Below are positions 7,352 to 64,000 of a stretch of DNA of 64,000 nucleotides, piece after piece. Within the stretch, counting starts at the first letter, position 1; each line of letters begins with the position of its first letter. Below the pieces are notes generated by a model. The model did not search any database, was not told the origin of the DNA, and worked only from the letters and a program-made list of their open reading frames with translations. The position numbers and the translations under genes were made by a program. Origin of the DNA: an uncultured bacterium (GTDB lineage: Bacteria; Acidobacteriota; Thermoanaerobaculia; Multivoradales; JAHZIX01); the NCBI GenBank assembly GCA_965368975.1, contig CBDUPA010000016.1:32001-96000 (forward strand). The letters are read 5' to 3'.

Positions 7352-8448
7352 GCTGGCAGATCGGCGACGATCCCAGCTCCTTGGTGCGCCCCGAGCTGCG
7401 CGAGCTGTCCCTCTACCACCTGGACCAGCAGCCCTATCGCTGGAAACTCGACCAGAATGAAGTTCCCTGGGACCTGCCGCGCCGGCTCAAGGAGCGCGTC
7501 GTCCGGCAGTTGGTCGAGCGCAGCTGGGCCACCTATCCGGACTTCCACGGCGACGAACTGCGGACCGCCCTGGGGCGGCGCTACGACTGGCCGACCGAAG
7601 GGGTGCTGGTGGGCAACGGCTCGAACGAGCTGCTGGGTCTGATACTGGAAGCCCTCGACACCTCCCGCGGCGGTGCGGCGGCGAACGGCGAGATCCTGAG
7701 CCTGCTGCCCGGCTTCAGCCTCTACCGCATGCTCACCCTGCGGGCGGGCAGAACCCCTCGATTCCTCGGGCCGGCAAGCGACCTCGGCTTGCCCCTGGCC
7801 GAGTTGCGAGCCGAGATCGAACGCGATCCGCACAGGCCGGTGATCCTGTGCAGTCCCAACAATCCCACCGGCTCCGCGGCGACCGTCGAGCAGGTCGACG
7901 CACTGCTGCAGCGGTTGCGGGCCCCGCTGCTGCTCGACAACGCCTACGGCGAGTTCTGCCGCCACGACTACCGCCCCTTGCTCGATCGGCATCCACACCT
8001 GATCTTGCTGCGAACCTTCTCCAAAGCCTGGTCCCTGGCCGGCATGCGCTTGGGGTATCTGCTCGCCGATCCGGGCCTGGTGCGGGAGCTGATCAAGGTC
8101 AAGCTGCCCTACAACCTGAGTCACGCCGGCGTGCTCGCCGCGCTCGCGGTGCTCGAGGAGCCTCGGCACGCCGAGCGCGCCGTGGACGCCATCCTACGTC
8201 GACGGGAGCAGTGGGCCGACTTACTGCGTGGTGCCGGGCTTCGGGTCTATCCGTCCGAGGCCAACTTCCTGCTCGTCGACTGTGGTCCTCGCGCGGCCAG
8301 CCTGCGCCAAGGCCTGGCCGAGCGGGGCATCCTGGTGCGCGACGTCAGCACCTATCACGGCCTCGCCGGCTGTCTGCGCTTCGCCATCGGCAGCGGCGGC
8401 GCCCTGCGAGCCACCCGCCGTGCTTTGGCGCAACTGGCATCAACCTGA
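7348..8448 (+). CDS. hisC: Histidinol-phosphate aminotransferase
   Basis: LDQNE, GNGSNE, CSPNNPTG, RTFSKAWSLAGMRLG (PLP lysine); start moved to ATG 7348, which overlaps the hisD stop. Confidence 0.95.
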   Translation: MSWQIGDDPSSLVRPELRELSLYHLDQQPYRWKLDQNEVPWDLPRRLKERVVRQLVERSWATYPDFHGDELRTALGRRYDWPTEGVLVGNGSNELLGLILEALDTSRGGAAANGEILSLLPGFSLYRMLTLRAGRTPRFLGPASDLGLPLAELRAEIERDPHRPVILCSPNNPTGSAATVEQVDALLQRLRAPLLLDNAYGEFCRHDYRPLLDRHPHLILLRTFSKAWSLAGMRLGYLLADPGLVRELIKVKLPYNLSHAGVLAALAVLEEPRHAERAVDAILRRREQWADLLRGAGLRVYPSEANFLLVDCGPRAASLRQGLAERGILVRDVSTYHGLAGCLRFAIGSGGALRATRRALAQLAST

Positions 8449-17133: not shown

Positions 17134-36534
<19,401 letters not shown>

Positions 36535-41155: not shown

Positions 41156-41232
41156 CTTTCCAATCCTCAAGTCAGGTCAAACAAGGTACGGCGTCGGTTC
41201 GCTGTCGAATCAGGGTGGCGTTTCTGGCTGCC

Positions 41233-45570: not shown

Positions 45571-45743
45571 GGCGCTGCTCCTCAAGGAAACCCCAGGTCG
45601 CGAGCCGTGCCGCTGCAGGTCAGGCCGCGCGAGGCCGGGAGGTCAGGTCCCGGGCCAGGGAAGAATCGGGTCGTTCAAGATCGGATCAGGTCATTCGGGC
45701 AATCGAGCCATTCAGGTTAATTCAGAGTCTCGGGCGGATCGAA

Positions 45744-47144
45744 TCAGTCGTCGTCCTCGGGCGGCAGCTCCCAGGCCTCGGCCCCCAGCGTCACCGGTTG
45801 CCGGCTCTCCTGGGCGTTGTACGCATCCCAGTCGATCCTGACACCGGCCAGCCAAAGTCGCGACACCGTGGAATGCAGCCAGCGCGACGCCGGCAGGGTG
45901 TCGCCGGGGTGTGGAATCGACGTCAAGTGCTGCTCGTCACTCTTCTCGGTCGTGCTCGGCGCCTGCGCCGCCAGCGTGGTCAGCGCGCGTCCGGGGCCCG
46001 CTTCGAGCAGGATCTGGCGCGTCTGTCCGGCGCGTACCGTCGCCAGGCCATCGGCGAAGCGCACCGTCTCGCGCAGGTGGCGCACCCAGTAGTCGGGGTT
46101 GAGCGCTTCGGCGTCAGTGGCCCAGGTGCCGGTGACGTTGGAGAGATACGGGATGGTGGGCGACGACAGGTGCAGTCCATCGTGCAGGCTGCTGCGGAAC
46201 TCATCCAGGATCGGGTCGACCATGGTCGAGTGTCCCGCGGCCTTGATGGCCAGCATGCGCACCTCGTGGCCGCGCAGTTCCAACATCGCCTGCAGCTCTT
46301 GTACCCGCTCTTCCGGTCCCGAGACGACGCAGCGCGCCGGCCCGTTGACCGCCGCGATGTCCAAGCCGCCGAGCAGAGGTCGCACCTCGGCCTCCGGCAT
46401 CGGCACGCTGAGCATGGCGCCGCCCGGCAGGTTCTCGATCAGTCGTCCGCGCAGCGCCACCAGTAGCACCGCGTCGTCCAGCGTCAAGACGCCGGAGAGA
46501 TTCGCCGCCACGTACTCACCCAGGCTGTGCCCGAGCATCGCCCGCGGTGTCACGCCCCAGGACAACCACAGCTTGGCCATGGCGTACGAGGTCGAGAACA
46601 GTGCCGGCAAGGCGACCGACGTGCGCCGGATGGCGGCCTTGGCGGCGTCGAGATGGGCTGGGTCAGGGTAGAGCGTGCCACGCAGGTCGAAACCCAGGTG
46701 CGGTTCGAACAGCTCGGCACAGCGGTCGATCTCGCGTCGGAACACGGGCTCGGAAGCGTACAGCTCGACGCCCATGTTGACGTACTGGGTGCCGCCGCCC
46801 GGGAACAGGAAGACCACCGGTAGCTCGTTTTTGCGCAAGGCCGTGCGCAGTCGCTGCGGGTCACGCTCGTCGAGAGCGCCGATGGCGTCGCCGTGCTGCT
46901 GGAAGAGCAGTGCCGCTCGGTGCGACAACCCTCGCTCGCCACGCTGGAAGGCGTACGCGACGTCACCTGCTGCCAGCTCGGGATGGTCCTCGACGAAATT
47001 GGCCACCGCGTCCGCGGCGTCGTCGAGGCCCTCGACACCGTCGCCGGAAAAGGGCAACACATGCCAGGAGCGTGCTTCCACAGAAGGAAGCTCCGCCACC
47101 GGTCGGATCCTCGGATCCGCCGTCGGATTCTGGCCTTCGCTCAT
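45744..47144 (-). CDS. Standalone (trans-acting) acyltransferase with KS-AT linker
   Basis: FLFPGGGTQY, GHSLGEY, AAVNGP, AAGHS, YWVRHLRETVRF; no KS or ACP. Confidence 0.88.
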   Translation of the reverse strand: MSEGQNPTADPRIRPVAELPSVEARSWHVLPFSGDGVEGLDDAADAVANFVEDHPELAAGDVAYAFQRGERGLSHRAALLFQQHGDAIGALDERDPQRLRTALRKNELPVVFLFPGGGTQYVNMGVELYASEPVFRREIDRCAELFEPHLGFDLRGTLYPDPAHLDAAKAAIRRTSVALPALFSTSYAMAKLWLSWGVTPRAMLGHSLGEYVAANLSGVLTLDDAVLLVALRGRLIENLPGGAMLSVPMPEAEVRPLLGGLDIAAVNGPARCVVSGPEERVQELQAMLELRGHEVRMLAIKAAGHSTMVDPILDEFRSSLHDGLHLSSPTIPYLSNVTGTWATDAEALNPDYWVRHLRETVRFADGLATVRAGQTRQILLEAGPGRALTTLAAQAPSTTEKSDEQHLTSIPHPGDTLPASRWLHSTVSRLWLAGVRIDWDAYNAQESRQPVTLGAEAWELPPEDDD

Positions 47145-49570: not shown

Positions 49571-51313
49571 TCAGAGGTGCAGCCAGTCGTTGAGCGCGCC
49601 GCGGACGAAGAAGGTCTTGACCGCCTTGCGCGCGACCCACTTCCAGCCGAGATCGAGCGTGATCTGGTCATAGCGCTCGAGCAGGGCGTCGCGCAGGTCG
49701 CGCCGCGAGTACTCGTCGACGTCTTCGATGCCGACGTCGGGGAAGGTCCGGTGCCAGCTGTCGGGGATGTCGTAGTCCTGGTGAATGCTCGGATCTTGCG
49801 GTGGCATCGCCGGCGGGTCGTCCGGGTCCGCCGGTTCGTGCCCATAGGAGGCGCCGAGGATGCCCTGCAGCGCCTCGAACGCCTGCGTGCGGCCGATCCG
49901 GTAGTCGTACTCGCGCCAGTCTTGCTGGAAGAAACCGATGAAGCCGGCGAACTCGTCGCCCGCGAGGCGGCTGTCACTGACGCCGATCTGGTGCATGTTG
50001 ATTTCGGATTTGTCGGCCAGGTGCGAAATATAATTCAGGATAAGGGTCGTCAAGTTGAGGATTCTTCGTTTTTCGGCGCTTTCGAGCTGGGCTGATGCGG
50101 CGTCGATGACCGGCACCTCGCGCACGGCGCGCAGACTGCGGTCGAGGTCCAGGTCGACGCCGGTGCGGGCGGCTTCGGTCGCCAGGACGTCGCTGGCCAG
50201 GCGTTCTAGTTGTTCCGCGTAGGACTGACTCTGAGACGTCGGCAGCTGGTCCAGCAGGCCACTCAGCTGCTCGACCAGGCGATCGCGCCAGCCGATCTCG
50301 ATGTTGTGACGCCCGGCGCGCATCCAGTCGCGCGCCGTACTCTCGCCGCGGATCATCTGGAGCAGGCGCCAGCCATGCTGACGCAAGGTGCCGTCGGAGG
50401 AGATGTCGGCCTGGTGCCGGGACCGGTTGATGCTCGGATCGACCAGCAGGTAGATACGGTCGGGATTGGCGCCGCCGTCCGCCTGGCGGGCGCGGTCGAT
50501 CGCTTCGCCCAGCGGTTCGTTGTTGAACAGGCCGCCGTCGATGAAGCACAGGCCGCGCTCGAACAGCGCGGAGTCTTTCCGCTCCAGGGCATCCGGATAG
50601 GCGGCGATGGGACGCACCAGCTGTTCCGGCTGGAAGGCCAGCGGGAAGTTGCCACAGGCGACGGCGGTGCGCGCCAGGTGATCCCAGCTGCTGGCGATGC
50701 GTTCCGCCGCGGTGGCATGGAAGGCGTGCACGCGGTCGTCGCCGGCATCGTGCTCGATCTCGAAGCGACCCATGTCCGAGAACAGGGTAGTGACGAAGCT
50801 GTTGCCGGCCAGCGCGGGCACGGCATAGGTCATGCCGTGCATGTTGCTCAGCGACAGCGACAAGCGCAGCACCTCGGGCGCGAAGCTGGCCGGAGTCACC
50901 GGTGGCTGGTCGGCGTCGCTCAGCACCAGGTTGTGGATGATCTCGAACAGGGCCTGCTTGGAGAGCAGCGCGTTGGTCGGCGCCTTGTCCAGGAGCTTGC
51001 GGATGTCGATGTCCCGGACCCAGGCGCGGTGCAAGTGGCGCCGTCGCCCGGGTAGGTCGTACATCAGGATCCGCGCCGCCAGCGCCGCCGTCATGCCCCC
51101 GGCCGAGCCGCCGGTCATGACGTCCAGCTCGTAGTGGATGCCGGTCGCCCGCGTGCGGCGGTTCAGCGTGTCGAGAGCGTAGAGCAACTCCGTCACCACG
51201 CCCGCTTCGAAGCTGCCGAGCGACACCCCGCCGGCCATCACCAGTGCAATCTTGACGGTGCGGACCGACGGATCGTCGAATGTCGGTGTGTTCTCGCGTT
51301 GTTGATCGGGCAT
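49571..51313 (-). CDS. Patatin-like phospholipase
   Basis: GGVSLG oxyanion loop, GGSAG nucleophile, DGGLFNN. Confidence 0.9.
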   Translation of the reverse strand: MPDQQRENTPTFDDPSVRTVKIALVMAGGVSLGSFEAGVVTELLYALDTLNRRTRATGIHYELDVMTGGSAGGMTAALAARILMYDLPGRRRHLHRAWVRDIDIRKLLDKAPTNALLSKQALFEIIHNLVLSDADQPPVTPASFAPEVLRLSLSLSNMHGMTYAVPALAGNSFVTTLFSDMGRFEIEHDAGDDRVHAFHATAAERIASSWDHLARTAVACGNFPLAFQPEQLVRPIAAYPDALERKDSALFERGLCFIDGGLFNNEPLGEAIDRARQADGGANPDRIYLLVDPSINRSRHQADISSDGTLRQHGWRLLQMIRGESTARDWMRAGRHNIEIGWRDRLVEQLSGLLDQLPTSQSQSYAEQLERLASDVLATEAARTGVDLDLDRSLRAVREVPVIDAASAQLESAEKRRILNLTTLILNYISHLADKSEINMHQIGVSDSRLAGDEFAGFIGFFQQDWREYDYRIGRTQAFEALQGILGASYGHEPADPDDPPAMPPQDPSIHQDYDIPDSWHRTFPDVGIEDVDEYSRRDLRDALLERYDQITLDLGWKWVARKAVKTFFVRGALNDWLHL

Positions 51314-51412: not shown

Positions 51413-53074
51413 CTACTCGTCCGGCAGCTCCAGTAGCTTGCGCAAGCGCCCGCGCGCCCACAGCTTCAAAGGCAGCTGGGCGGCCTCCGGCAGATCCAGA
51501 TCCTCGAAGCTCTGCTTGGCGACGAGCATCAGCTGCTCGCACAGCTGGAGGCGTATCTCTTCGTCGGTGTTGGCGATGGTGAACTCGTTCGGCGGAACAG
51601 GGGGCGGTCCCGGCTCCGCGGGCGCTCCGAAGGCGGCGAGAGCGCGCGGAAAGTGCTCGTCCAGGATCTTGGGAACGTCGCGCCGGGCCATGAACTCGCC
51701 GACGGCGAAGTCGTGCTGGCGCAGTTTCTTATCAAAGAAGCCGAGCAGGCCGAAGAACTCCTCGCCCGCCAGCTCGTCCGGGTCGGCGCCGACCAGGCCC
51801 AAGCGCAGGTCGGCTTTGTTCTGCAGGCCCGCGGCATTGTTCAGGACGAAGGTGCATAGATGGAAGATTCTTCGTTTATCTGCGCTCTCGCCTGCAATAT
51901 GTGCGGCTGTCTGGAGTTTCACTTGACGATCCTGCAGTTTCAGGCTGTTCTCTAGGTAGTCCTCGGGATAGCGTGTGAGGCCGAACAACTGGCGCTTGTG
52001 CTCGACGATGTCGCCCGCCAGCTGCCCCAGGCCCTCGAGCAGTTGCAGGTCGGTTTCCGCCGAGCTGCCGGCGATCAGGTGGGCGAGCTGCTCGCTCAGG
52101 CCGTCGCGCCAGTCGAGTTCCTGGTTACGCCGGCACACGCGCAGCCACTCGCGCGCCAGGCTCTGGTCGCGGATCACCGAGGCGATGCGCCGGAGCTGGT
52201 CGGGCAGGCTCGACTCGGAGTTCAGCTCCGGGTCGTGGCGCGACGAGTCGAGCTTGGGGTCGACGAGCAGGAACAGGCGTCGATCGTCCGGGCCTCCGTC
52301 GGCCTCGCGCGCCAGCCGGATCGCCTCGCCCAGGGGCTTGTTGTCGAACAGGCCACCGTCGATGAACGCCAGGCCCTGCTGCAGTAGCTCCAGGTTGTCC
52401 ACTTCGCGCGCGCCTGGATAGTCGTCGACGTTGCGGGCCAGCGTCTGCGGTTGGAAGGCGATCGGCAGGTTGGCGCATGCCATGGCGGCGTTGCCGACGC
52501 GGTGCCAGTCGGTGTCCTCGGGCGCGTCGCGCCGCACCAGGAAGTGGGCCACGTCCTTGAACACCGTGGTCACGAAGTTGCGCCCCTTGCCGCGGCCGAT
52601 CGGCAGGAAGGGCAGCTCGTAGGTCATGCCCTGCAGGTTGCTCAGCGTCATGCCCAGGCGCAGCAGCTCGGGCGTGCAGGAGAACGGTCCGCCGTTGCCG
52701 GGCAGCACTGCCTCCGGGCCGCGCAGCAGTCCTGCTTGCAAGATCTGCTCGATGATCTTCTTGGAGAAGGCCGCGTTCTTCGGCGGATCGGTGAGCAGGT
52801 GGCGGACGTCGATGTCGCGCACCCAGGAGCGATACAGCGGATTGCGCTCCGGCTGCTCGTTCGGGGCCGGTCCATCCTGCAGGTAGCGCGCGGTCAACGC
52901 TCCGACTACGCCGCCCGCCGAGGCGCCGGTGATGATGTCGATCTCGAAGTGGTGCGGACCTTCGGCATTGCGCTGTTCCAGCTGCCGCAGCAGCTCGGTG
53001 ACGACGCCGGATTCGAAGGCTCCCAGCGAGCCGCCGCCGGCCAGGATGAGCGCGATCTTGTGGGTATGGGGCAT
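51413..53074 (-). CDS. Patatin-like phospholipase (paralog of the neighbour)
   Basis: GGGSLG, GASAG, DGGLFDN; start set at ATG 53074 after AGGA. The longer 978-aa ORF extension overlaps menE and is not credible. Confidence 0.9.
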   Translation of the reverse strand: MPHTHKIALILAGGGSLGAFESGVVTELLRQLEQRNAEGPHHFEIDIITGASAGGVVGALTARYLQDGPAPNEQPERNPLYRSWVRDIDVRHLLTDPPKNAAFSKKIIEQILQAGLLRGPEAVLPGNGGPFSCTPELLRLGMTLSNLQGMTYELPFLPIGRGKGRNFVTTVFKDVAHFLVRRDAPEDTDWHRVGNAAMACANLPIAFQPQTLARNVDDYPGAREVDNLELLQQGLAFIDGGLFDNKPLGEAIRLAREADGGPDDRRLFLLVDPKLDSSRHDPELNSESSLPDQLRRIASVIRDQSLAREWLRVCRRNQELDWRDGLSEQLAHLIAGSSAETDLQLLEGLGQLAGDIVEHKRQLFGLTRYPEDYLENSLKLQDRQVKLQTAAHIAGESADKRRIFHLCTFVLNNAAGLQNKADLRLGLVGADPDELAGEEFFGLLGFFDKKLRQHDFAVGEFMARRDVPKILDEHFPRALAAFGAPAEPGPPPVPPNEFTIANTDEEIRLQLCEQLMLVAKQSFEDLDLPEAAQLPLKLWARGRLRKLLELPDE

Positions 53075-53160
53075 GGTCTGGTTCCTGTCGAAGACGGGGT
53101 TCCGGTCGGAGGTTCGAGTTGGAACGTCGGATCCGCTGGCCGGGTCCGGGCGTTCGGAAG

Positions 53161-54705
53161 TCACGGTCGGGCGTCTGACGCGGGCGAGGTACCCAGGTGC
53201 CGCAAGTATGCACGCGTCTGGACCGCCGCCTCGCGACGGTCGATCTTGCCCGTTGCGTTGACGGGCAGCGCCTGCACATAGGCAACGCGCCGAGGGCGCT
53301 TGAAGCGGGCCAGCTGAGTTTCTAGGAAGTTTAGCAGGTTCTCGTCTGTGGGTTCTTCCGGCGCCACCAGCGCCGCCGCCACCACCTCGCCCCACTCCGC
53401 GTCGTCGACCCCGAACACGCACGCCGCCGTGATCGCCGGATGCGCCAGCAGCGCCGCTTCGACCTCGGCCGGATGCACGTTCTCGCCGCCGCTGATGATC
53501 AGCTCCTTGGCGCGCCCCAGCAGGTGCAGCCGGCCGTGCGCGTCGAGACGTCCCAGGTCGCCCGTGCGCAGCCAGCCATCGTCGGTGAAGGCGGAGCGAT
53601 CGAGGCCCGCAGCCGTGGTAGCAGTCGCGGGCGTCCAATACCCGTCCATCAGCGTCCCTCCCGCCACCTGCACCTCGCCGTCGACGATGCGCACCCCGAC
53701 TCCGTCGAGCGGCGGTCCGACGCCCGCGTCCGTCGCGTTCTCGTCGAGCGAGCGATAGCGCTGCGTCGTCACCTGCGCGCAGGCTTCGGTCAAACCATAC
53801 GTCGCGAGCACCGGCACACCACGCTGCCGAGCCTCGTCGAGCAAGCCCGCCGGCGTCGCCGCTCCGCCCACCAGCACCGCGCGCAGCGACGGCGGAGGCG
53901 TCCAGTCGGGCAGCTTGAGCAGCCGTCGTAGCATCGTCGGCACCAGCGACATCAAGGTCACCCCTTGCTGCTTGACCACCGCCGCCACCGCGTCCGCGCG
54001 TCCCGCGTCCGTTCGCTGCATCACCACTGTCCGGCGCGCGACCAGGCAGCGCGTCAGCACCGACAATCCTCCCACGTGCCCGATCGGCAACCCGAGCCAC
54101 CAGCGATCGCCGTCGATCCAGCCCAGGTTCTCCGCGCTGGCGTTGGCGGCGGCGAGAAAGGCACGCCGGCTGAGCACCGCGATTTTCGGCTCGCTGGTGG
54201 TGCCGGAGGTGAAGAGGAGGGCGAGGGGGGAATGGAGATCGGGTCTGGTTCTGGGTAGGGGCAGGCCCATGCGGTCGGCGCCCCGATGCCTGCCCTCCGG
54301 GGTTTGGGCGGGAGAAGAAGCGGATGCGGCTTCGCCGCAGGGCACCCACATGGGGGTGCCCCTACCCAGATAAGACGTCTCGGCCAACATCGCCACCCGC
54401 CGCGCCCGTTCGGCCTCTGTCCACCTCGGATGCAGCAACGCCAGCGGATGCCCCAGCTCGATCAGCGCATAGATCCGCACCAGTACCCCCGGCCGTAGCT
54501 CACCGACCACCGGCACGACCGGCGGCAAGTCCTCGCCCCGCAGAGCCGCGATCTCACCGCGCACCGCCTCGGCGACGCGCGCGTACGTCCACACCTCGCC
54601 GTCCTTACTGGCGTCCCCGAAGAGCCACGCCGGACGCTCGGGCACCTCCTCGGCGGCGCGCAGGATCGACAGCGCCGCGTCGTCCTGCTTGGTCACGGAA
54701 TCCAT
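53161..54705 (-). CDS. menE: AMP-dependent acyl-CoA ligase, o-succinylbenzoate-CoA ligase-like
   Basis: FTSGTT, LPIGHVGGL, TYGLTE, RTGDLG, ISGGENVHP, TGKIDR; contains an in-frame REP insertion; no other men genes in the window. Confidence 0.6.
   Translation of the reverse strand: MDSVTKQDDAALSILRAAEEVPERPAWLFGDASKDGEVWTYARVAEAVRGEIAALRGEDLPPVVPVVGELRPGVLVRIYALIELGHPLALLHPRWTEAERARRVAMLAETSYLGRGTPMWVPCGEAASASSPAQTPEGRHRGADRMGLPLPRTRPDLHSPLALLFTSGTTSEPKIAVLSRRAFLAAANASAENLGWIDGDRWWLGLPIGHVGGLSVLTRCLVARRTVVMQRTDAGRADAVAAVVKQQGVTLMSLVPTMLRRLLKLPDWTPPPSLRAVLVGGAATPAGLLDEARQRGVPVLATYGLTEACAQVTTQRYRSLDENATDAGVGPPLDGVGVRIVDGEVQVAGGTLMDGYWTPATATTAAGLDRSAFTDDGWLRTGDLGRLDAHGRLHLLGRAKELIISGGENVHPAEVEAALLAHPAITAACVFGVDDAEWGEVVAAALVAPEEPTDENLLNFLETQLARFKRPRRVAYVQALPVNATGKIDRREAAVQTRAYLRHLGTSPASDARP
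54250..54370. repeat. REP doublet, in-frame inside the MenE-like gene
   Basis: 14-bp perfect terminal inverted repeat TCTGGGTAGGGGCA...TGCCCCTACCCAGA; contains TGCGGCTTCGCCGCA hairpin. Confidence 0.85.
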
Positions 54706-55758: not shown

Positions 55759-56199
55759 TCACGCCACCGTGGGCAGAGAAGGCACACTCGATCCCAGCCG
55801 CCGCGAAAGATGCCCCGCGATCTGCTGTGCCCGCTGCACAAAGATCTCCGCCGCCGTCCCGGAGGTCTCCTCGTGCACCGTCGCGCTGAACAGCTCCAGC
55901 CAGCGGCCCCAGAGTTCTGGTGGTAGGTGCCCGAGTGCTCGGTGCTTGGGCAGAGGCTGGCCTTGATAGCGTTTCGAGGACAGCAAGATGGTGGACCAGA
56001 AGTCCACCATGGTTTCCAGGTGTTGGGACCAGTGGTCGGCCAGGTGCGGTTCGAACACGGGGCCGAGAAGGTCGTCGCCGCGCACCTTGGCGTAGAAGCT
56101 GTGCACCACGGCGCCGATGGCGGCTTCGCTGGGGAGTTGCTCTGCGTTGGCGCTAGGGGCCGGAGATTCCGGTTGGGGATGCGTCGAGTGTGCTTGCAT
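55759..56199 (-). CDS. Group III truncated hemoglobin
   Basis: VHSFYAKVRGDDLLGPVF, WSQHLETMVDFWS, YQGQPLPKH, RWLELF. Confidence 0.9.
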   Translation of the reverse strand: MQAHSTHPQPESPAPSANAEQLPSEAAIGAVVHSFYAKVRGDDLLGPVFEPHLADHWSQHLETMVDFWSTILLSSKRYQGQPLPKHRALGHLPPELWGRWLELFSATVHEETSGTAAEIFVQRAQQIAGHLSRRLGSSVPSLPTVA

Positions 56200-56303: not shown

Positions 56304-56546
56304 CTAAGCTGCGACCCGGGCGCGCTGGTATAGGAATTCCGGGGCGAAATCGGCGCCGTTGGGCCAAGTCACGGTGTGCAGTTCGGGATGGACTTGGAAC
56401 TGGCGAAAGACCGTCGGATCCTTCAGCGGCTCGAACATCGGGCCGTACAGTTCGTCGGTCAGGTCGACCTGGCCTTCGCTGCCGTCGTTGAAGCGGAGGA
56501 GAAGGGTGTAGGCGTCGAGGTGGTGGGCTTCGGTGACACGGATCAT
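56304..56546 (-). CDS. DUF2442-family protein (putative antitoxin)
   Basis: 80 aa; LLLRFNDG..VDL..L.GPMFEPLKD...F....TVTWPNGADFAPEFLY. Confidence 0.85.
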   Translation of the reverse strand: MIRVTEAHHLDAYTLLLRFNDGSEGQVDLTDELYGPMFEPLKDPTVFRQFQVHPELHTVTWPNGADFAPEFLYQRARVAA

Positions 56547-56550
56547 GGCT

Positions 56551-56808
56551 TTACTCCAAAGGTTCGACCGGGAGAAGTGGCTCCCTAGCTCTGGCACGTT
56601 GCCAGTTGGATTCCAACTCGGCTTGGTGAAGCTTGTACCATTCCAGAACAAGTTTCAACGCACGGCGCGGAAACTTACCGTTGACGTTGCCACTTCCAAT
56701 GTCGACTGTGATTTCATACTCCCCATACTTCGCATGGAAATGGGGCGGAGAATGATCGCGGTAGTACATGGCAATGAGAATGCCGAGGAAACGGCTTATT
56801 TCGGGCAT
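56551..56808 (-). CDS. DUF4160-family protein (putative toxin partner)
   Basis: 85 aa; MPEISRFLGILIAMYYRDHSPPHFHAKYGE...LVLEW...HQAELESNW. Confidence 0.88.
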   Translation of the reverse strand: MPEISRFLGILIAMYYRDHSPPHFHAKYGEYEITVDIGSGNVNGKFPRRALKLVLEWYKLHQAELESNWQRARAREPLLPVEPLE

Positions 56809-56890: not shown

Positions 56891-59800
56891 ATGCTTGATC
56901 CAATAACTCTGACGATTGTAACCGGAGCTGCGGGCAATCTCGCAGCGGCGGCTGTTGCTTACTCTGCGGGCAAGATCAAGGAGCGTTTTGACCGAGACGC
57001 TGCACTCGAGCGGGCTTTGAATTCTTGCTGCCAGGCTGGTTTGACTGCCTTGATTCTCAGTGCCAAGCAGCAGGTGCCACAGTTCGACGATGTTGTCGAG
57101 CTTGGGTTTCGGGAGGCTCTCGAAGGCGAGAAGCTCATAGATGGCTTCGGGTCTCGCTTGCGCCGGGTCCTGCGCGGCAAGTCTCTGGAAGTCGATGACA
57201 TGGCCGATCTCTTCCAAGATCATGGGTTCGACCTTTCGAAGGTCCCAGGTCTGGATCTGGAGGTCAGCTTCCGCGAGTTCGAGGCGGTGTTTCTCGAGAG
57301 AGCTGTACAGGAAGACATCCTTCGCAAGGAAGCAGAGGCGTACCAGAGTCGCAAACGAACGCAGCTTCTGGAGCGGGTCGTTGAGTTGCTGGAGGCGGGG
57401 CAGAAGACGATAGTTGAGTCTTCGCAGCCACGTCAGAACACAGATGCAAAGCAGGCCCACGACCGCTATCTCGAACGCCTGATTCGCGACTGCCAGGGGC
57501 TGGCCTTAGCGGAGCTGGGTGGACAAGGTGATGCGACATCGAAGGTCAAGTTGGACGATGTGTATGTGGATCTGCTGACGAAGAGCCGCATCGAGCTGAC
57601 GCCGGAGGAGAAGAAGGAACGTCGCTCTCGCCACAAGAAGGACCGCCCTCTCACGGCCTTGGAAGCAACGGCCCAGACTCCGCACCTCGTCTTGCTCGGT
57701 GATCCCGGCAGTGGCAAGAGTTCGTTCGTTCGCCATCTGACGGCGCGACTGGCGCGAGCACGCCTGGACGGAGCGGAAGCGTACGAGGGCACCCGCGACC
57801 TGCTGCCGATCTTCGTCATTCTGCGGCGCCTGGTGCCTCACCTGCGGAACCTGAAGCTGAAGGGCTTGACGAAGGATCGGCGCCAGCCGCTCTTGCTCGA
57901 TGCGCTGAAGGAAACTGTCCTGGAGTTCGTGGGCGAATGTGATGCTAAAGCATTCGGGGAGGCGGCACGGGATGCCCTGGTGGACGGCAAGTGCTTCTTG
58001 GTGCTGGACGGCCTGGACGAGGTGCCGACGGACCTTCGCCCGGCAGTCGCGGAGACGGTGGCGGCAGCGGTGGAGAAGTATGCCTTGCCGCGGGTGATCG
58101 TCACCTGCCGCGTGCGGTCCTACCAGAGCGGTGCCGTACTGACCGGCTTCCAGGACCACGAACTCGCGCCCTTCACGAAGGAGCAGGTACAGCGTTTCGT
58201 GGCGGGTTGGTACGGGGCGCAGCAGCGGCACGGGCACGTGACCTCTGCTGAGGCCAAGGAGCGCACGGAAGATCTCCAGCAGGCGGCCGGTGGGCTGCAC
58301 GAACTGGCGCAGAATCCGATGCTGCTGACCACGATGGCACTGATTCATCAGCAGAACATCGGCCTGCCGCGCCAGAAGGTGTTGCTGTACGACGAGGCGG
58401 TGAAGGTGCTGCTGGTGCGCTGGCAGAAGCGCATTGGATTTGCCGGGGCCGTCTCGGGAGAACTGGCCGAGGTGCTGCAAGATGCGACGCGGATCCGGCC
58501 GGTATTGGAACGGTTGGCGTTTGAGGTGCACTTGGCCGAGGAGGCGGATGCTGCAGCGGAAGAGCAGGGCGAAATGTCGGGGCTGGACTGGGGGCGGATC
58601 GTCCAGATCTTGAAGGAAGACAAGTACCTCGGCTCGACCTCACTGGCAGAGGCGTTCCTCGACTACGTGGACCAGCGCGCCGGGATCTTGGTGGGACGAG
58701 GGGGTGGTCCGGGCGAGCCGCTACGCTACAGCTTCCCGCATCGGACCTTCCAGGAGTACCTGGCCGGCTGCTACTTGGTCGCCGAAACGGACGATGCCGT
58801 GGGCGCGGTATACGAGCGGGCAGCAGCCGGGGACTTCTGGTACCTGGCGGTGCAGCTGGGAGCGGAAGAGTTAGTCTACAGTCGGCGCTTTCCGTCCTTG
58901 GTCCAGCGGCTGGCGCTGGGCCTGTACCCGTCGGGTGGCAAGCGAGATGAGTCGGCGCGGCGGGCGAGCCTGTGGGCTACTTGGATGGCGACGCTGCTGG
59001 AGGCGCAGCCGGGCGGGGTGGCGAGCAGCGGACCGGAGAGCTGGAAGAGCTTTCTAGGCCGGTGTCGGAAGCGGCTATGTGCGCTGCTGGGCAAGGGGCT
59101 GCCTGTGCGGGAGCGAGTGGAGGTGGGACGGTTGTTGGCCAAGCTCGGAGACCCGCGGCCGGAGGTGATGACGGTGGAGGGGATGGAGTTCTGCCGCGTG
59201 CCGGCGGGGCCGTTCTGGATGGGCAGTGATGACTCGGACGAGCTTGCCTTCGGTGATGAGAAGCCGATCACACGGCAAGAGGTGAACTACGACTACTGGA
59301 TGGCGCGCTACCCAGTGACGCAAGCTCAGTTCCGGCTGTTCGTGGAGGCCGGCGGTTACCGGGACTACCGCTACTGGTCGGAAGCCCAGGCCGCCGAGCG
59401 CTGGATGGCGGAGACTGGGTTCGATCGGCGACAGGGGCCGGTCTCGTACGGAGAGCGCTTCGACTTGTCGAATCACCCGGTTGTCGGGGTGAGTTGGTTC
59501 GAGGCGTTGGCGTTCACGCGTTGGCTGACGGCGGAGTACCGCGAACGAGGCTGGCTGCCGGATGGTTGGTGCATCTCTCTGCCCTCGGAGTTGGAGTGGG
59601 AGAAAGCGGCCCGTGGCGGGGAGCAGGTGCTCGTATCTGCGCTTGGTGAGGGTATTGAAATGGTGCAAGGGTGGATCTGTAAAGCACTTCAGGCCGAGCA
59701 GCAAGAGAACCCGGAACCTCGCCGGTTCGTTCCGTGGACGGGTGGTTTCGAAGCGGATCGGCTGAACTGGAGTGGGCAGCGGCTAGGCGCAACGTCGGCA

Positions 59801-60109
59801 CCGGGGCTGTTCCCGAAAGGCAGCAGCCCGGTGGGCTGCGAGGAGATGTGCGGCAACGTCTGGGAGTGGACGCGCAGCATCTGGGGCGAGGTCCCTTATC
59901 CTACAGCCGCTGCGGATCGACGAGATAGAGAGGATTTTTCGAATTCAAGCGAGTTCCGCGTCTGGCGTGGCGGTTCGTTCGCCGACTATCGGCAAGGCGT
60001 GCGCTGCGCCTACCGCTACAGGGGTCCTCCGGACTTCCAGTTCTTCGACGTGGGTTTTCGTGTTGCGCTCCTCCCGTTATCTCTGAACTCTGAAGACTCT
60101 GAACTCTGA
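56891..60109 (+). CDS. NACHT/STAND NTPase with C-terminal FGE-sulfatase (CLec-fold) domain; DGR target protein
   Basis: Walker A GDPGSGKSS, Walker B LVLDGLDE, NPMLLT, FPHRTFQEYLA; FGE motifs FWMGS, YPVTQAQF, HPVVGVSW, LPSELEWEKAARG, GNVWEWT, RGGSF..GFRV; VR at the 3' end. Confidence 0.95.
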   Translation: MLDPITLTIVTGAAGNLAAAAVAYSAGKIKERFDRDAALERALNSCCQAGLTALILSAKQQVPQFDDVVELGFREALEGEKLIDGFGSRLRRVLRGKSLEVDDMADLFQDHGFDLSKVPGLDLEVSFREFEAVFLERAVQEDILRKEAEAYQSRKRTQLLERVVELLEAGQKTIVESSQPRQNTDAKQAHDRYLERLIRDCQGLALAELGGQGDATSKVKLDDVYVDLLTKSRIELTPEEKKERRSRHKKDRPLTALEATAQTPHLVLLGDPGSGKSSFVRHLTARLARARLDGAEAYEGTRDLLPIFVILRRLVPHLRNLKLKGLTKDRRQPLLLDALKETVLEFVGECDAKAFGEAARDALVDGKCFLVLDGLDEVPTDLRPAVAETVAAAVEKYALPRVIVTCRVRSYQSGAVLTGFQDHELAPFTKEQVQRFVAGWYGAQQRHGHVTSAEAKERTEDLQQAAGGLHELAQNPMLLTTMALIHQQNIGLPRQKVLLYDEAVKVLLVRWQKRIGFAGAVSGELAEVLQDATRIRPVLERLAFEVHLAEEADAAAEEQGEMSGLDWGRIVQILKEDKYLGSTSLAEAFLDYVDQRAGILVGRGGGPGEPLRYSFPHRTFQEYLAGCYLVAETDDAVGAVYERAAAGDFWYLAVQLGAEELVYSRRFPSLVQRLALGLYPSGGKRDESARRASLWATWMATLLEAQPGGVASSGPESWKSFLGRCRKRLCALLGKGLPVRERVEVGRLLAKLGDPRPEVMTVEGMEFCRVPAGPFWMGSDDSDELAFGDEKPITRQEVNYDYWMARYPVTQAQFRLFVEAGGYRDYRYWSEAQAAERWMAETGFDRRQGPVSYGERFDLSNHPVVGVSWFEALAFTRWLTAEYRERGWLPDGWCISLPSELEWEKAARGGEQVLVSALGEGIEMVQGWICKALQAEQQENPEPRRFVPWTGGFEADRLNWSGQRLGATSAPGLFPKGSSPVGCEEMCGNVWEWTRSIWGEVPYPTAAADRRDREDFSNSSEFRVWRGGSFADYRQGVRCAYRYRGPPDFQFFDVGFRVALLPLSLNSEDSEL
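59951..60073 (+). repeat. DGR variable repeat (VR)
   Basis: Aligns ungapped to TR at offset +635; in the 115-bp core, 20 of 22 mismatches fall at TR adenines. Confidence 0.95.
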
Positions 60110-60134
60110 ATCTCTGATCTGGCAAAGGGGGAGC

Positions 60135-60156
60135 CCGAGGGGGCTTGCCCCCTCGG
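60135..60156. other. GC-rich hairpin downstream of VR (DGR homing hairpin/cruciform candidate)
   Basis: CCGAGGGGG-CTTG-CCCCCTCGG, perfect 9-bp stem with 4-nt loop, 25 nt after the target stop codon. Confidence 0.75.
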
Positions 60157-60181
60157 AGGATTGTGGTATCTTCTGCGCGCA

Positions 60182-60535
60182 ATGAGTCGACCGGAGATGC
60201 CAATCTTCGTCCGTAGCTTCGATTTCTTGACTTGGTTATTGCCTCTTACCAATCACTTTCCACGTGCCCACCGGCACACAGTTACGCAGCGTCTCCTGAA
60301 TGCTGCCTTCGATCTACGAGAGTGCCTGGAAGCAGCGAACACGCGGCTGGGTCCTGAGCGGTTAGAGTTTCTGGTAGAGGCTGATGTCGCGTTGGGGCGA
60401 GTCAGGACCTACTTGAGGCTGGTGGAGAAATGGCAGTGGATATCGCCGGGTCAGTATGAGCACGCGGCGCGAATGGTCGCGGAGATCGGCAGGCTCCTCG
60501 GAGGTTGGAAGAAGACAGTCTTGCCTCGAACTTAG
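60182..60535 (+). CDS. avd: DGR accessory variability determinant (Avd, four-helix bundle)
   Basis: 117 aa from ATG 60182; PIF..FDFL.WL....FPRAHR....RL, LRL......I...QYEH....[10 protein letters not shown]; lies between VR and TR. Confidence 0.92.
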
Positions 60536-60585
60536 GCGACAGTTCCCGGCGTCTGACGCCGGTTTCTGTGGGGATTCGCCCGAAG

Positions 60586-60708
60586 GAGTTCCGCGTCTGG
60601 CGTGGCGGTTCGTTCGCCAACAATCACAACAACGTGCGCTGCGCCTACCGCAACAGGAATCAACCGAACAACCAGAACAACAACATGGGTTTTCGTGTTG
60701 TTCTCCTC
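60586..60708 (+). ncRNA. DGR template repeat (TR)
   Basis: A-rich copy of VR with 11 AAC/AAT codons, intergenic between avd and RT; flanked by hairpins (60546-60562 and ~60721-60739). Confidence 0.95.
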
Positions 60709-60842
60709 ACATTCTCCGATCGCCGGAACTTCCTGGCGGGTCTCCGACCTTTCAGGCCGAGGCGGAAAATGGCGGGGTGGGTTCCCGGCCGCATCCGGGC
60801 AATGTACACAACTGAGCCTTGCTCGGATCGGGCATATAGGTA

Positions 60843-61958
60843 GTGGCTCCGCCTCCTGGCTCCGGCCTGAGGCGGGGCGAGTTCGCCTCGGAGTTCGACC
60901 ACCTTATCGAGTGGTCGAATCTACGCCTCGCCTACCGCAAGGCCAGCAAGGGCAAGCGCGGCCGGTCCGATGTGGCCGCATTCGAGCTGTGCCTCGAAGA
61001 TAACCTCTTGGACCTGCAAGCCGACCTGCAAGCCAGAACCTATCGCCCCGGCGGCTATCGAAGTTTCTTTATCCACGAGCCAAAACGTCGGCGCATCAGT
61101 GCCGCACCGTTTCGGGATCGCGTAGTGCACCACGCGCTGTGCAACGTGATCGAGGAGCGCTTCGAACGCTCGTTTGTTTCTGAGAGTTTCGCCAACCGAG
61201 TTGGCAAGGGTACCCATCGAGCGCTCGAACACGCCCAAGACTGTGCGCAGCGATTCCGTTTCGTCGTCCAACTCGACATCCGGCAGTTCTTCCCCAGCAT
61301 CGATCACGAGATTCTGTTCGCGTTGCTGCGGCGGAAGATCGAAGACTCCGCAGTGCTCTGGTTGATCGGGCTGATCCTGGCCTCGGGAGAGGGAGTGCTG
61401 GCGGACGAGTACGATCAGGTCTTCTTTCCGGGTGATGATCTGTGGGCTGCGTTGCGACCGAGGGGCTTGCCCATTGGCAACTTGACCAGTCAGTTCTGGG
61501 CCAATGTCTACATGAGCGGTCTGGATCACAAGATCAAGCGGCAGCTGCGTTGCCGGGGGTATGCACGCTACGTAGACGACCTGCTCTTGTTCTCGAACAG
61601 CAAGCGTGAGCTGTGGATGTGGAAAGGGGCGCTGGGGGCGGAGCTGGAGCGCTTGAGGCTGAAGGTTCATCCCGGCGTGCAACCACGGCCGGTGCCAGAA
61701 GGTGTTCCGTTTTTGGGCTTCGTGATCTATCCGCACAAGCGCCTGCTCAAGCGGCGCAAGGCGGTGCACTACCGGCGACGTTTGCGGGGCAAGCTGAGGG
61801 CCTCGACTCAGGCAGAAGAGCCGTTGCGGCAGAGCGTGCAATCGTGGTTGAATCATTGCCGATACGGGAACACGTTTCATTTGTGTGCGAAGCTCCTGGC
61901 GGAGGCTGGAGTTAGCTGCGAGTTGTGGCCGGAGGAACTGGCCGCCCATGATCTGTGA
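60843..61958 (+). CDS. DGR reverse transcriptase
   Basis: EPKRRRISAAPFRDRVVHHAL, GKGTH, LDIRQFFPSIDH, GLPIGNLTSQFWANVY (DGR-type SQ), RYVDD, FLGF; start codon uncertain. Confidence 0.95.
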   Translation: MAPPPGSGLRRGEFASEFDHLIEWSNLRLAYRKASKGKRGRSDVAAFELCLEDNLLDLQADLQARTYRPGGYRSFFIHEPKRRRISAAPFRDRVVHHALCNVIEERFERSFVSESFANRVGKGTHRALEHAQDCAQRFRFVVQLDIRQFFPSIDHEILFALLRRKIEDSAVLWLIGLILASGEGVLADEYDQVFFPGDDLWAALRPRGLPIGNLTSQFWANVYMSGLDHKIKRQLRCRGYARYVDDLLLFSNSKRELWMWKGALGAELERLRLKVHPGVQPRPVPEGVPFLGFVIYPHKRLLKRRKAVHYRRRLRGKLRASTQAEEPLRQSVQSWLNHCRYGNTFHLCAKLLAEAGVSCELWPEELAAHDL

Positions 61959-62010
61959 GGGTAAGTTGTTCGAATTCGTTTACTAACGATTGAGTCTTCA
62001 AGAGGTTCAC

Positions 62011-64000
62011 ATGACGGACCCTTTTTCCAGCATTCTGATCGGCGCCGCCGGTAACGTCACCGCCGGTCTGATTTCCTCCTCCATCGGTGAAGTCGGGGCG
62101 TGGCTCAAGGGAGATGCGGAGCGCGAAGCGGCGCTGAACCGAGCTACACAGACGGGACTGGCCGCCCTCCTGGTCAAGGCCAAGGGGCAGGCCCCGGACC
62201 TGTCCGATCACGTCGAGACTGCCTTCCAGCTGCCCTTGCGCCATCCGGACCTGATGGCGGATCTCGGTAAGCTGCTGCAGGTGGCGCTGCGCGGCCGAGA
62301 GTTCGACAGCGAGACCGGAGCACGCCTGTTCAGGGAATACCAGTTCGATCTCGCGGATCTACCGGGCCTCGACCTGCAGGAGTGCTTGCGCGAGCTAGAG
62401 GCGGCGTTCATCGAGACCGCTGACCGCCAGGAGGTCCTGCAGACCGAACTGCTGACCTTCCACGCCCGCCGGCACTCGCAGTTGCTGGAGGAGGCTGTGG
62501 CGCTGCTGCGGCGCATCGGAACGGCGCCTGCGGGGCTCGCTGGTGCGGCGGACGCAGAGACGACGCGTCAGTTGTACCTCCAGCAACTGGCGAGGCATTG
62601 CCAGGCGCTGCCGTTGGCCGAGCTGGGTGGCAAGGGGCAGGGGTTGACCAAGGTGCGGCTTGGCGATGTCTTCATCGAGCTGAACACCCAGACGCGGATC
62701 CCGCGGACGCCGGAAGAGAAGAAGGTCTTCGAAGAAGAGCACGGCTACCCCTCGGATGATCGCCTACTGACCGCCGAGCAGGCCGCGGACCGGCACCCGC
62801 AGCTGGTGCTGCTGGGCCACCCCGGTAGCGGCAAGAGTTCGTTCATCCGGCATCTGGTGGCACGGCTGGCGGCTCCGGGGCCGGCTGCCCCCGCACCGCC
62901 GTGGGCGGAGGGATTGCTACCGGTCCTGCTCGTCTTGCGCCATCTGGCGCCCCTCCTCGCCCGGCTCGAGCTTGACTCGCTCGACCTGGAGCAACGGCGG
63001 CAGCGGCTGGGCGAGGCGCTGCAGGCGGCCGTGGTCGAGAGCGCCAGGCTGTGCGGTGCGGAAGCCTTCGGGGAGAGGCTGCGCGAGGCTCTGATCAGCG
63101 GCCGCTGCCTGCTGGTCCTGGACGGGCTGGACGAGGTGCCGGCGAAGCTGCGACCGATCGTCCGGCGCGCGGTTGAGGCCGCGCTGCAAACCTACAGCCT
63201 CGCCCGCGTGATCGTGACCTGTCGGGTCCATTCCTACCAGGGCCGGGCGCAGCTGCCGGACTTCACCGTCCACGAACTGATGCCGCTGACTTCCGGCCAG
63301 GTCGAGCGCTTCGTAGAGGTGTGGTACCACGCCCGCCACCTCCACGGGTATGTCACCGCGGCGGAGGCCGAAGAGCGGGCCGAAGACTTGAAGCGCGGGG
63401 CGCGGGGCCTGCTTCAGCTGGCGGACAATCCGATGCTGCTGACCACGATGGCCCTGGTCCACCAGCAGAATATCCGGCTGCCGCCGCAGAAGGTCTGTCT
63501 CTACCACGAAGCGGTCAAGGTGCTGCTGGTGCGCTGGCAGGAAAGCAAGGGGCTGATCCGGGAACTGGCTCCGCGGCTGGTCGAGATCCTGAACGAGGAC
63601 GGCCGCATCCGCCCGGTGCTGGAGCGGCTGGCCTTCGAGATCCACCGCAGGGAGCAGGAGGTGGGTGAGAGCGAGGAGTCCGGCCTGGAATGGGAGCGGA
63701 TGCTCAAGATTCTCAAGGCACCGGTGTACCTGGGTTCGACATCCCTGGCGGAGGCCTTCCTGGAGTACGTCGATCAGCAGGCCGGGATTCTGGTGGGTCG
63801 CGGTGGGGGACCGGACGACGCGTTGCGCTACAGCTTCCCGCATCGCACCTTCCAGGAATACCTGGCTGGCTGTTATCTGGTCAGCCAGTCGGAACCGGTG
63901 ACGGAGATCTATCAGCAAGCGGCGGCCGGCGACTTCTGGTACCTACCCGTGCAGCTGGCGGCGGAAGAACTGCTGCACAACCGCCGAGTTCCTCAATTCC
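62011..64000 (+). CDS. Second NACHT paralog, 3'-truncated by the window edge (likely second DGR target)
   Basis: Not in the ORF track because it has no stop in the window. ATG 62011 after GAGG; MTDPFSSILIGAAGN..., GHPGSGKSS, LVLDGLDE, NPMLLTTMALVHQQNI, YSFPHRTFQEYLAGCYL all in one frame. Confidence 0.9.
   Translation, partial: MTDPFSSILIGAAGNVTAGLISSSIGEVGAWLKGDAEREAALNRATQTGLAALLVKAKGQAPDLSDHVETAFQLPLRHPDLMADLGKLLQVALRGREFDSETGARLFREYQFDLADLPGLDLQECLRELEAAFIETADRQEVLQTELLTFHARRHSQLLEEAVALLRRIGTAPAGLAGAADAETTRQLYLQQLARHCQALPLAELGGKGQGLTKVRLGDVFIELNTQTRIPRTPEEKKVFEEEHGYPSDDRLLTAEQAADRHPQLVLLGHPGSGKSSFIRHLVARLAAPGPAAPAPPWAEGLLPVLLVLRHLAPLLARLELDSLDLEQRRQRLGEALQAAVVESARLCGAEAFGERLREALISGRCLLVLDGLDEVPAKLRPIVRRAVEAALQTYSLARVIVTCRVHSYQGRAQLPDFTVHELMPLTSGQVERFVEVWYHARHLHGYVTAAEAEERAEDLKRGARGLLQLADNPMLLTTMALVHQQNIRLPPQKVCLYHEAVKVLLVRWQESKGLIRELAPRLVEILNEDGRIRPVLERLAFEIHRREQEVGESEESGLEWERMLKILKAPVYLGSTSLAEAFLEYVDQQAGILVGRGGGPDDALRYSFPHRTFQEYLAGCYLVSQSEPVTEIYQQAAAGDFWYLPVQLAAEELLHNRRVPQF

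Follow-up and report, generated by a model that had tools for sequence, protein, structure and literature searches.

Several described systems lie close to the locus reported here. Kaur et al. (2020, eLife; PMC7159879) tied the formylglycine-generating enzyme sulfatase (FGS) domains of conflict systems to diversity-generating retroelements (DGRs), and the Supplementary Discussion of the preprint by Kibby et al. (2022; 10.1101/2022.07.19.500537) contains the hypothesis that NACHT proteins serve as antigen sensors. Doré et al. (2024, PNAS; PMC10907252) described clade 5D DGRs having "two targets with central STAND NTPase" (STAND, signal transduction ATPases with numerous domains). Antigen sensing or kin recognition was proposed there and noted as untested, and the C-type lectin (CLec) domains on STAND proteins were stated to be not yet characterized experimentally. 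The passages on FGS-type NACHT proteins in Kibby et al. and Kaur et al. report no experimental test of such a protein, and among the papers retrieved in a literature search for DGRs in combination with NACHT, STAND, or NOD-like receptors (NLRs), none put a DGR-diversified NLR-like protein to an experimental test. The idea of a DGR-diversified NLR antigen sensor is already published (Kaur et al., 2020; Kibby et al., 2022; Doré et al., 2024), and the locus fits it. This locus is a DGR cassette with two receptor genes, located in a 64,000-nt stretch of DNA, hereafter the window (positions 32001–96000 of contig CBDUPA010000016.1, designated C16), of the genome assembly GCA_965368975.1 from an uncultured member of Acidobacteriota. 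The genome comprises 7.13 Mb in 59 contigs, is 99.3% complete, and has a G+C content of 65%.

The cassette is chromosomal, and its components follow one another on one strand in the order target gene 1, avd (accessory variability determinant), template repeat (TR), reverse transcriptase (RT) gene, and target gene 2. We hold with high confidence that the DGR anatomy of the locus is real and complete. The repeats carry adenine-specific differences, the genes are intact, the domains and folds of their products are identifiable, hairpins follow the variable repeats (VRs) only, the surroundings are non-phage, and comparable loci recur in other genomes. The locus is very probably a chromosomal DGR cassette that rewrites the C-terminal lectin-fold domains of two NLR-like NACHT/STAND receptors, for which we propose a role in sensing. 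A sequence-only reading that preceded this analysis had recognized an intact-looking chromosomal DGR with its VR in the C-terminal lectin-fold domain of one NLR-like NACHT protein. This description stood, but the system turned out to be larger, with two targets flanking the avd–TR–RT core. The sensor role that the reading suggested coincides with the hypothesis published earlier.

The cellular DGRs of clade 5D (Doré et al., 2024; Thiohalocapsa PB-PSB1 DGR 3 and DGR 6) are likewise chromosomal and match our locus in architecture, which is the basis of the likeness: two targets beside the RT, each with a single CLec domain and a central STAND NTPase. Several DGR loci per genome are reported for this clade, and at least two are present in our genome; unequal VRs within one locus, as with VR1 and VR2 here, are reported as well. 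The published systems are further marked by an RT within clade 5 of the DGR RT tree and by hosts that are multicellular or form aggregates. The differences concern the host lineage, the relatives of the cassette RT being found mostly in Chloroflexota/Anaerolineae metagenome-assembled genomes (MAGs), and the N-terminal domain, which is NNH2-like helical here and EAD8, TIR, or peptidase in clade 5D. The FGS-type antigen-receptor NACHT proteins (Kaur et al., 2020; Kibby et al., 2022) have an NNH-type N-terminal helical domain, as our targets do, although the domain found here is too divergent for a direct Pfam NNH2 match and is linked to that family through relatives. Bordetella phage BPP-1 (Mtd, Avd, TR, bRT; Guo et al., 2011; PMC3240598) shows the same A-specific flow from TR to VR with Avd and RT, and there, too, a lectin-fold open reading frame (ORF) carries the VR at its 3' end. 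In contrast to the phage system, the cassette is cellular, its target is an intracellular-type NTPase receptor rather than a tail fiber, and there are two targets per TR. Eukaryotic NLRs such as NLRC4 and NOD2 share with target 1 the tripartite layout with a central NACHT/NOD module. Unlike theirs, the sensor of target 1 is a single lectin-fold domain and not a set of leucine-rich repeats, and the N-terminal domain is unrelated to CARD/PYD. The target sensor would be diversified somatically by a retroelement, whereas NLR sensors are germ-line encoded.

DGR-diversified NLR-like proteins are the nearest bacterial thing known to a somatically diversified antigen receptor. The locus is a clean and compact example of them, with one TR, two paralogous targets, intact avd and RT genes, identical hairpins, and a 99%-complete genome. 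That genome also contains a paralog that is not diversified and could act as a control, and another DGR of this type. The compact layout with a built-in control therefore makes the locus a possible test case for the binding of invader molecules and for the choice of VR within one locus. It opens no new category and will be no surprise to specialists; its merit lies in the tidy subject that it offers for experiments.

Template and Variable Repeats

The TR (60586..60700, plus strand) contains 30 adenines and, in the frame of the VR, 11 AAY codons. VR1 (59951..60065, plus strand) lies in frame in target gene 1 and encodes residues 1021–1058 of 1072, inside the PF03781 match at residues 766–1059. 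The alignment of VR1 and TR was gap-free, with 22 mismatches that fell on 20 of the 30 TR adenines and on 2 of the 85 non-A sites (Fisher exact p = 4.8e-13). TR adenines were replaced by G in nine cases, by T in nine, and by C in two; the two non-A mismatches were located at 59992 (G/C) and 59995 (A/C). The 5' 33 nt of VR1 were identical to the TR, synonymous sites included, and weak TR homology extended past VR1 to about 60081. The sequence-only reading had given the same repeat coordinates and the same count of adenine and non-adenine differences, which our alignment reproduced exactly. The TR and VR1 peptide strings that it quoted proved correct on translation (the VR1 peptide contains ADYRQGVRCAYRYRGPPDFQFFDV), and its figure of 4^30 DNA variants was obtained again from the 30 TR adenines. 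This potential equals 10^18.1 DNA variants, or about 10^17 protein variants, over 18 codons. Almost all of the TR adenines (29/30) occupy codon positions 1 and 2, and a stop codon is unreachable by any substitution of an adenine.

Two hallmarks of DGRs were found in the repeats. The TR/VR differences fall almost only on TR adenines in VR1 and in the 3' 82 nt of VR2, and the VR is placed at the 3' end of the target ORF, within a C-type-lectin/FGE-sulfatase fold. VR1 appears to be overwritten along its full 115 nt. Its recent activity is likely, because 83 of the 85 non-A sites equal the TR within otherwise diverged paralogs.

Target gene 2 encodes a NACHT paralog of 1070 aa and extends on the plus strand from 61990 to window-equivalent position 65202 (C16 93990–97202), leaving the window at 64000. 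It starts 32 nt past the RT stop codon, and the 670 residues encoded within the window show 52% identity to target 1. The domains are those of target 1, with NACHT PF05729 scoring 28.7–30.5 bits. VR2 (window-equivalent 65044–65158, plus strand) lies at the 3' end of this gene and differs from the TR at 21 of the 30 A sites and at 16 of the 85 non-A sites. Within its 3' 82 nt (positions 34–115), 21 of 29 A sites and 4 of 53 non-A sites differ (p = 1.7e-9), and the 5' 33 nt have drifted from the TR, also at synonymous sites. To judge from this pattern, VR2 is a genuine VR with a drifted 5' third, because the A-specific changes are confined to the 3' 82 nt and the non-A changes are clustered at the 5' end. 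It follows from the latter (12 of 32 non-A sites in the 5' third) that VR2 has not been fully overwritten recently. By analogy with BPP-1, where short internal identities of at least 8 bp are enough for 5' cDNA integration (PMC3240598), rewriting of VR2 could still be possible from an internal 15-nt block identical to the TR.

Avd and Reverse Transcriptase

The avd gene (60161..60535, plus strand; 124 aa) has a probable ATG start at 60182. Its product matched NF033474 DivGenRetAVD with 82.2 bits (cut-off 80) and PF22296 bAvd with 67.8 bits (cut-off 40; E 1.4e-18). The Avd component of a DGR is accordingly present, and it was the sole such match in the genome. The RT gene (60843..61958, plus strand) codes for a protein of 371 aa with an RVT_1 match at E 5.9e-15. 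RTs of DGRs are defined by SQ-type and YVDD motifs. Both were found in this protein, LPIGNLTSQ at 209–217 and YVDD at 243, along with DIRQFF at 145; the RT is of the DGR type and has kept its catalytic motifs. The earlier reading had called avd and an RT with YVDD and SQ motifs intact, and this agrees with an Avd score above the curated cut-off and with the motifs listed here.

Domain Organization of the Receptors

Target gene 1 (56891..60109, plus strand) is an ORF for a protein of 1072 aa, in which Pfam matches and an AlphaFold2 (AF2) model delineated four parts: a helical domain at the N-terminus, a NACHT NTPase, a helical arm, and an FGE-sulfatase/CLec domain. The NACHT NTPase core (residues 256–441; 57656..58213, plus strand) carries Walker A GDPGSGKS at 270, Walker B LDGLDE at 372, and VTCR at 404. 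PF05729 matched residues 266–441 with 36.4 bits against a cut-off of 26.7, and target 2 also scored above this cut-off, so that a NACHT module was recognized in both targets, with Walker A and Walker B in target 1. Residues G270, G273, G275, K276, D373, and R407 of target 1 were invariant across 45 family members. The full-length AF2 model of target 1, built on 45 relatives, had a pLDDT of 87.4 and a pTM of 0.76. Foldseek matched this model to lectin folds of the EgtB/FGE type (E about 1e-12 to 1e-9) as well as to NLRC4 (4kxf; E 1e-9) and NOD2 (5irm; E 4e-9). The model points to a tripartite layout of N-terminal domain, NOD, and C-terminal sensor with an NLR-like fold.

The FGE-sulfatase/C-type-lectin-fold domain (residues 766–1059; 59186..60067, plus strand), which contains VR1, matched PF03781 with E 2.7e-46. 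In the PDB, its sequence matched EgtB, CalU17, and FGE. Compared with the enzyme equivalogs, it scored 85.5 bits for EgtB (cut-off 360), 76.5 for SenA (cut-off 420), and 32 for the N-terminal part of OvoA (cut-off 400). These scores are far under the cut-offs; the domain shares the fold of the EgtB, SenA, and OvoA enzymes and does not belong to their family.

The N-terminal domain of target 1 (N-domain; residues about 1–175; 56891..57415, plus strand) was delineated from a profile and from AF2 as all-helical and distantly related to NNH2. Residues 1 to about 175 had no Pfam family of their own at E ≤ 10, and no direct match to PF22734 NNH2 was obtained with the N-terminal 250 aa in Pfam at the same threshold. 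A word-indexed protein search with residues 1–255 returned only the query itself. When 1.84 billion representatives were searched with a profile built from the N-termini of the three paralogs, 350 proteins matched at E ≤ 1e-3. For an alignment of 45 rows, P0001 was combined with 44 of the 150 listed profile matches, picked by eye as being about 800 aa or longer and having a match that started near the profile start. Matches to the pre-NACHT segment alone (profile positions about 165–250) and shorter fragments were omitted. A second alignment comprised the three paralog N-termini and 33 short matches. Among the 45 long family members scanned, NACHT was found in 43 and FGE-sulfatase in 40, with tetratricopeptide repeats in place of the latter in 3, so the N-domain is usually fused to a NACHT-lectin architecture like that of target 1. 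PF22734 NNH2 was matched by 23 of these 45 relatives (best E 7.3e-12), a link that is transitive only. From these NACHT, FGE-sulfatase, and NNH2 counts, the N-domain is placed, as a divergent member, in the family of NACHT N-terminal helical domains, as far as profile relationships can tell. An Atlas feature match of the N-domain to NNH3/NNH1 at 0.90 is taken as a lead only.

The AF2 model of the N-domain consisted of helices only (pLDDT 82.5). By position alone, the domain is a candidate effector or adaptor. The first helix is Gly/Ala-rich and hydrophobic in the paralogs. A HeLo/Bell-like membrane effector was considered as well and was set aside, the hydrophobic first helix being the sole support obtained for it. 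With tblastn, the N-domain was found in none of the 71 RT-related loci described below, and in the genome itself only in three paralogs; sharing of the EAD type with the neighboring patatin proteins was not found in this search.

Sequence Elements Downstream of the Variable Repeats

Retrohoming in BPP-1 requires a hairpin downstream of the VR, which is GC-rich, has a stem of 7–10 bp, and is absent from the TR (PMC3240598). A comparable arrangement, though with another loop sequence and a greater distance from the VR, was observed here. A 22-nt GC-rich inverted repeat follows VR1 (60135..60156, plus strand) and can form a 9-bp stem with a 4-nt CTTG loop, or one of 10 bp with a 2-nt loop. A second, letter-identical copy, detected as a match of the 22-mer, lies past VR2 (window-equivalent 65229–65250, plus strand). 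The 22-mer has exactly two copies in the 7.1-Mb genome and none after the TR. Short CTCTGAA-type direct repeats (60081..60125, plus strand), revealed by a repeat scan, fill the interval between the VR1 end and the hairpin and span the stop codon of target 1. Repeats of this type precede the hairpin past VR2 also, and the flanks of the hairpin are letter-identical at both VRs. A 12-mer of these repeats has three copies in the genome, all of them just past VR1 or VR2. In the 71 RT-related loci, a perfect GC-rich hairpin within 160 nt downstream was present for 28 of 69 VRs vs. 5 of 57 TRs, and some of the stems were similar. By analogy with the phage system, the inverted repeat is a candidate for the hairpin or cruciform needed for target recognition by DGRs. 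The GC-rich 3' boundary shared by the repeats, GGTTTTCGTGTTG..CTCCTC, may play the role of the initiation of mutagenic homing (IMH) site.

A small GC hairpin between the avd stop codon and the TR (60546..60562, plus strand) is possibly part of the DGR RNA. It is a weak candidate, because the terminator-like scan that detected it was barely above shuffles (6 sites vs. 4.0 expected). Promoter and terminator scans of the locus gave results at chance level, and Rfam returned no family at E ≤ 1 for 59800–62100.

Related Loci in Other Genomes and Metagenomes

In other species, 71 loci with a related RT were found, mostly in MAGs of Anaerolineae/Chloroflexota. A NACHT match was present in 29 of them, a lectin-domain match in 56, and an A-biased TR/VR pair in 55. 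The VR lay inside the lectin match in 49 loci, 22 of which had such a VR beside NACHT, and at least two VR-bearing lectin domains occurred in 10. All these counts are lower bounds, because many of the loci are on short contigs. Among the 41 genomes of the same family and order, including the one analyzed here, an RT match at E ≤ 1e-20 was obtained in 11, a patchy distribution; several of these 11 genomes contributed frames of 457 aa with 30% identity, which we take as other RT classes. None of the 41 genomes belongs to the same genus, and the best RT match apart from the cassette RT was 53% identical.

A search of metagenome contigs with target 1 yielded 488 relatives; among the best 80 of the 488, none exceeded 39% identity. 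A search of sequencing runs returned five runs from two studies, each sharing 0.06 of the sampled words, with no RNA run among the matches. Four of the five runs were examined. Three of them, sludge metagenomes of one study (X1, X3, and X4), contained contigs of a relative about 86–88% identical in DNA, with, for example, 143 differing letters over 58000–59013 and 154 over 60618–61906. The gene order of this relative was the same: a target, avd, TR-RT, and then a further NACHT gene. The sludge contigs stop at the VR, and the summed depth in the bin 59963–60113 was 0.8–2.1 vs. about 5–20 alongside. We draw no inference from these contig ends, because assemblies are interrupted by repeats no less than by variable sites.

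Proposed Mechanism and Alternative Interpretations

The scheme below covers present-day retrohoming, ligand, oligomerization, effector action, and biological role, all of which we infer. The TR would be transcribed, and its RNA would be copied into cDNA by the RT with Avd, with misincorporation opposite adenines. In each target gene, the mutated cDNA would then take the place of the 3'-terminal VR, guided by the common GC-rich 3' boundary and by the GC hairpin about 55–70 nt further downstream, which is present at the VRs only. As an outcome, two paralogous STAND proteins could vary their C-type-lectin-fold (FGE-sulfatase-like) domain at 18 codons, with a ceiling of about 10^17 variants. By analogy with other NACHT proteins, binding of a ligand to the variable face may release NTP-dependent oligomerization, which in turn would activate the N-terminal domain. 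The end role would be the sensing of invaders or of non-kin. Membership in the NACHT family suggests an adaptive-like immune or non-self sensor.

A more specific scenario would combine two points: one TR serving the receptors unequally (VR1 as a whole, VR2 from the 15-nt block on) and the NNH2-like bundle acting as a death or membrane effector released on oligomerization. If it were true, a cell would have one sensor that explores fully alongside another that is frozen in part. Neither point was found in the passages of the cited literature that deal with such systems, and we consider the combined scenario improbable.

Several observations weigh against an active DGR that diversifies two sensory receptors. 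The putative recognition hairpins have a CTTG loop and lie about 55–70 nt from the VR, whereas in phage DGRs the loop is GRNA and the distance is 4–34 bp. The AF2 model of the N-domain had no PDB match at E ≤ 0.001 in Foldseek. PADLOC (2023) assigned no defense family to the targets and none to Avd, and the NCBIfam antiphage family EruA was matched with 54.5 bits against a cut-off of 1000. Non-A mismatches are present in both VRs, two in VR1 and 16 of 85 in VR2, where they are clustered in the first 33 nt (12 of 32 sites vs. 4 of 53 in the remainder). These mismatches, together with the unequal diversification of VRs within one locus reported by Doré et al. (2024; PMC10907252), would also fit a fossil DGR that was once active and is now silent or inactive, so that the differences between VR and TR are historical and the receptors are effectively fixed alleles. 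However, the target, avd, and RT genes are all open, with catalytic and family motifs kept, and VR1 still equals the TR over its 5' 33 nt and at all but two of its non-A sites. Both hairpins with their flanks are letter-identical. Such identity of VR1 and the hairpins is unexpected after long neutral decay, because the paralogs are otherwise 52% identical, and we regard a fossil as unlikely.

A better candidate, which we still judge to be on the unlikely side, is that the same anatomy serves another role than anti-phage sensing, either kin/non-kin recognition in filaments or aggregates or the tuning of a signaling pathway. Kin recognition is named as an alternative by Doré et al. (2024; PMC10907252), and regulatory tuning is proposed in a paper on cyanobacterial DGRs (BMC Genomics, 2020; PMC7517822). 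PADLOC recognized no defense genes beside the locus, save weak phospholipase matches on the patatin gene 2.5 kb upstream. On the other hand, the experimentally tested bacterial NACHT proteins act in phage defense (Kibby et al., 2022; 10.1101/2022.07.19.500537), and an intracellular NTPase-coupled sensor is better placed to meet an invader than a neighbor, neither of these arguments being decisive. The machinery itself (avd, TR, RT, and a VR in a lectin fold) is that of BPP-1, and a gene with an SLT domain 9 kb upstream matches phage endolysin PHROGs, as might be the case for a phage or prophage DGR that varies a tail-fiber-like receptor-binding protein for tropism switching. The targets, however, bear a NACHT NTPase and an NLR-like fold. 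The flanking ORFs searched extend from window position 36593 to some 15 kb beyond the end of the window and include neither capsid, terminase, tail, or integrase genes nor any other phage module; within this range, the earlier statement that phage genes do not flank the locus holds. The upstream flank contains three polyketide synthase (PKS) genes, an SLT transglycosylase, a beta-propeller protein, two patatins, MscS, and DUF2442, and the downstream flank contains UbiA, a thiamine pyrophosphate (TPP) enzyme, a chorismate-binding enzyme, MarR, and an M13 peptidase. PHROG matches in these flanks were limited to the domain level (SLT, DUF2442, and TPP). With such neighbors, among them the PKS, MscS, and chorismate-binding/TPP/UbiA genes, a phage origin of this kind is exceedingly improbable.

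Neighboring Genes and Further DGR-Type Loci in the Genome

The chorismate-binding, TPP-enzyme, and UbiA neighbors resemble genes of menaquinone biosynthesis. The PKS genes (36593–47144, minus strand) encode KS-AT-ACP with a luciferase-like monooxygenase, KS-KR-ACP, and a stand-alone acyltransferase, and form a secondary-metabolite cluster. Two patatin-like phospholipase genes, at 49571–51313 (minus strand; 580 aa) and 51413–54349 (minus strand; 978 aa), lie 2.5–7 kb upstream of target 1. The larger patatin gave the weak PADLOC phospholipase effector matches. No domain common to the patatins and the NACHT proteins was found by BLAST. Small opposite-strand ORFs are located just upstream of target 1, at 56304–56651 and 55759–56199 (both minus strand). 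One of them is the DUF2442 gene, which matches two PHROGs without known function; the other has no family.

A third full-length paralog of the targets, with 51% identity and the same N-domain, is encoded at C10:223760–227089 (minus strand). Because its 3' end has no TR-like VR, this copy looks like a non-diversified orphan. A second DGR is located at C15:3500–10300, with an RT gene at 6097–7014 (minus strand) whose product is 39% identical to the cassette RT and a TR at 7183–7341. Its VRs, at 8046–8204 and, inverted, at 5584–5655, form the ends of two convergent NACHT-lectin genes. The TR/VR differences are T-specific on the plus strand, which is A-specific on the RT strand. No Avd match was found at this locus. 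A third DGR-like RT gene, 139638–140474 (plus strand) within C9:138000–143100, encodes a protein that is also 39% identical. It is flanked by a NACHT-lectin gene (143060–140856, minus strand) and a lectin-domain gene (138154–138864, plus strand), and no TR/VR pair was detected there in the A-bias scan. At C2:345300–348950, a NACHT-lectin gene and a lectin-domain gene show 26–28% identity to target 1, and the range 340000–352000 around them contained no A-biased repeat. The nearest RT match on C2 (335958–336710, in a frame of 637 aa) has 33% identity and may represent a different class of RT. About 25 more FGE-sulfatase-like stretches are spread across the genome.

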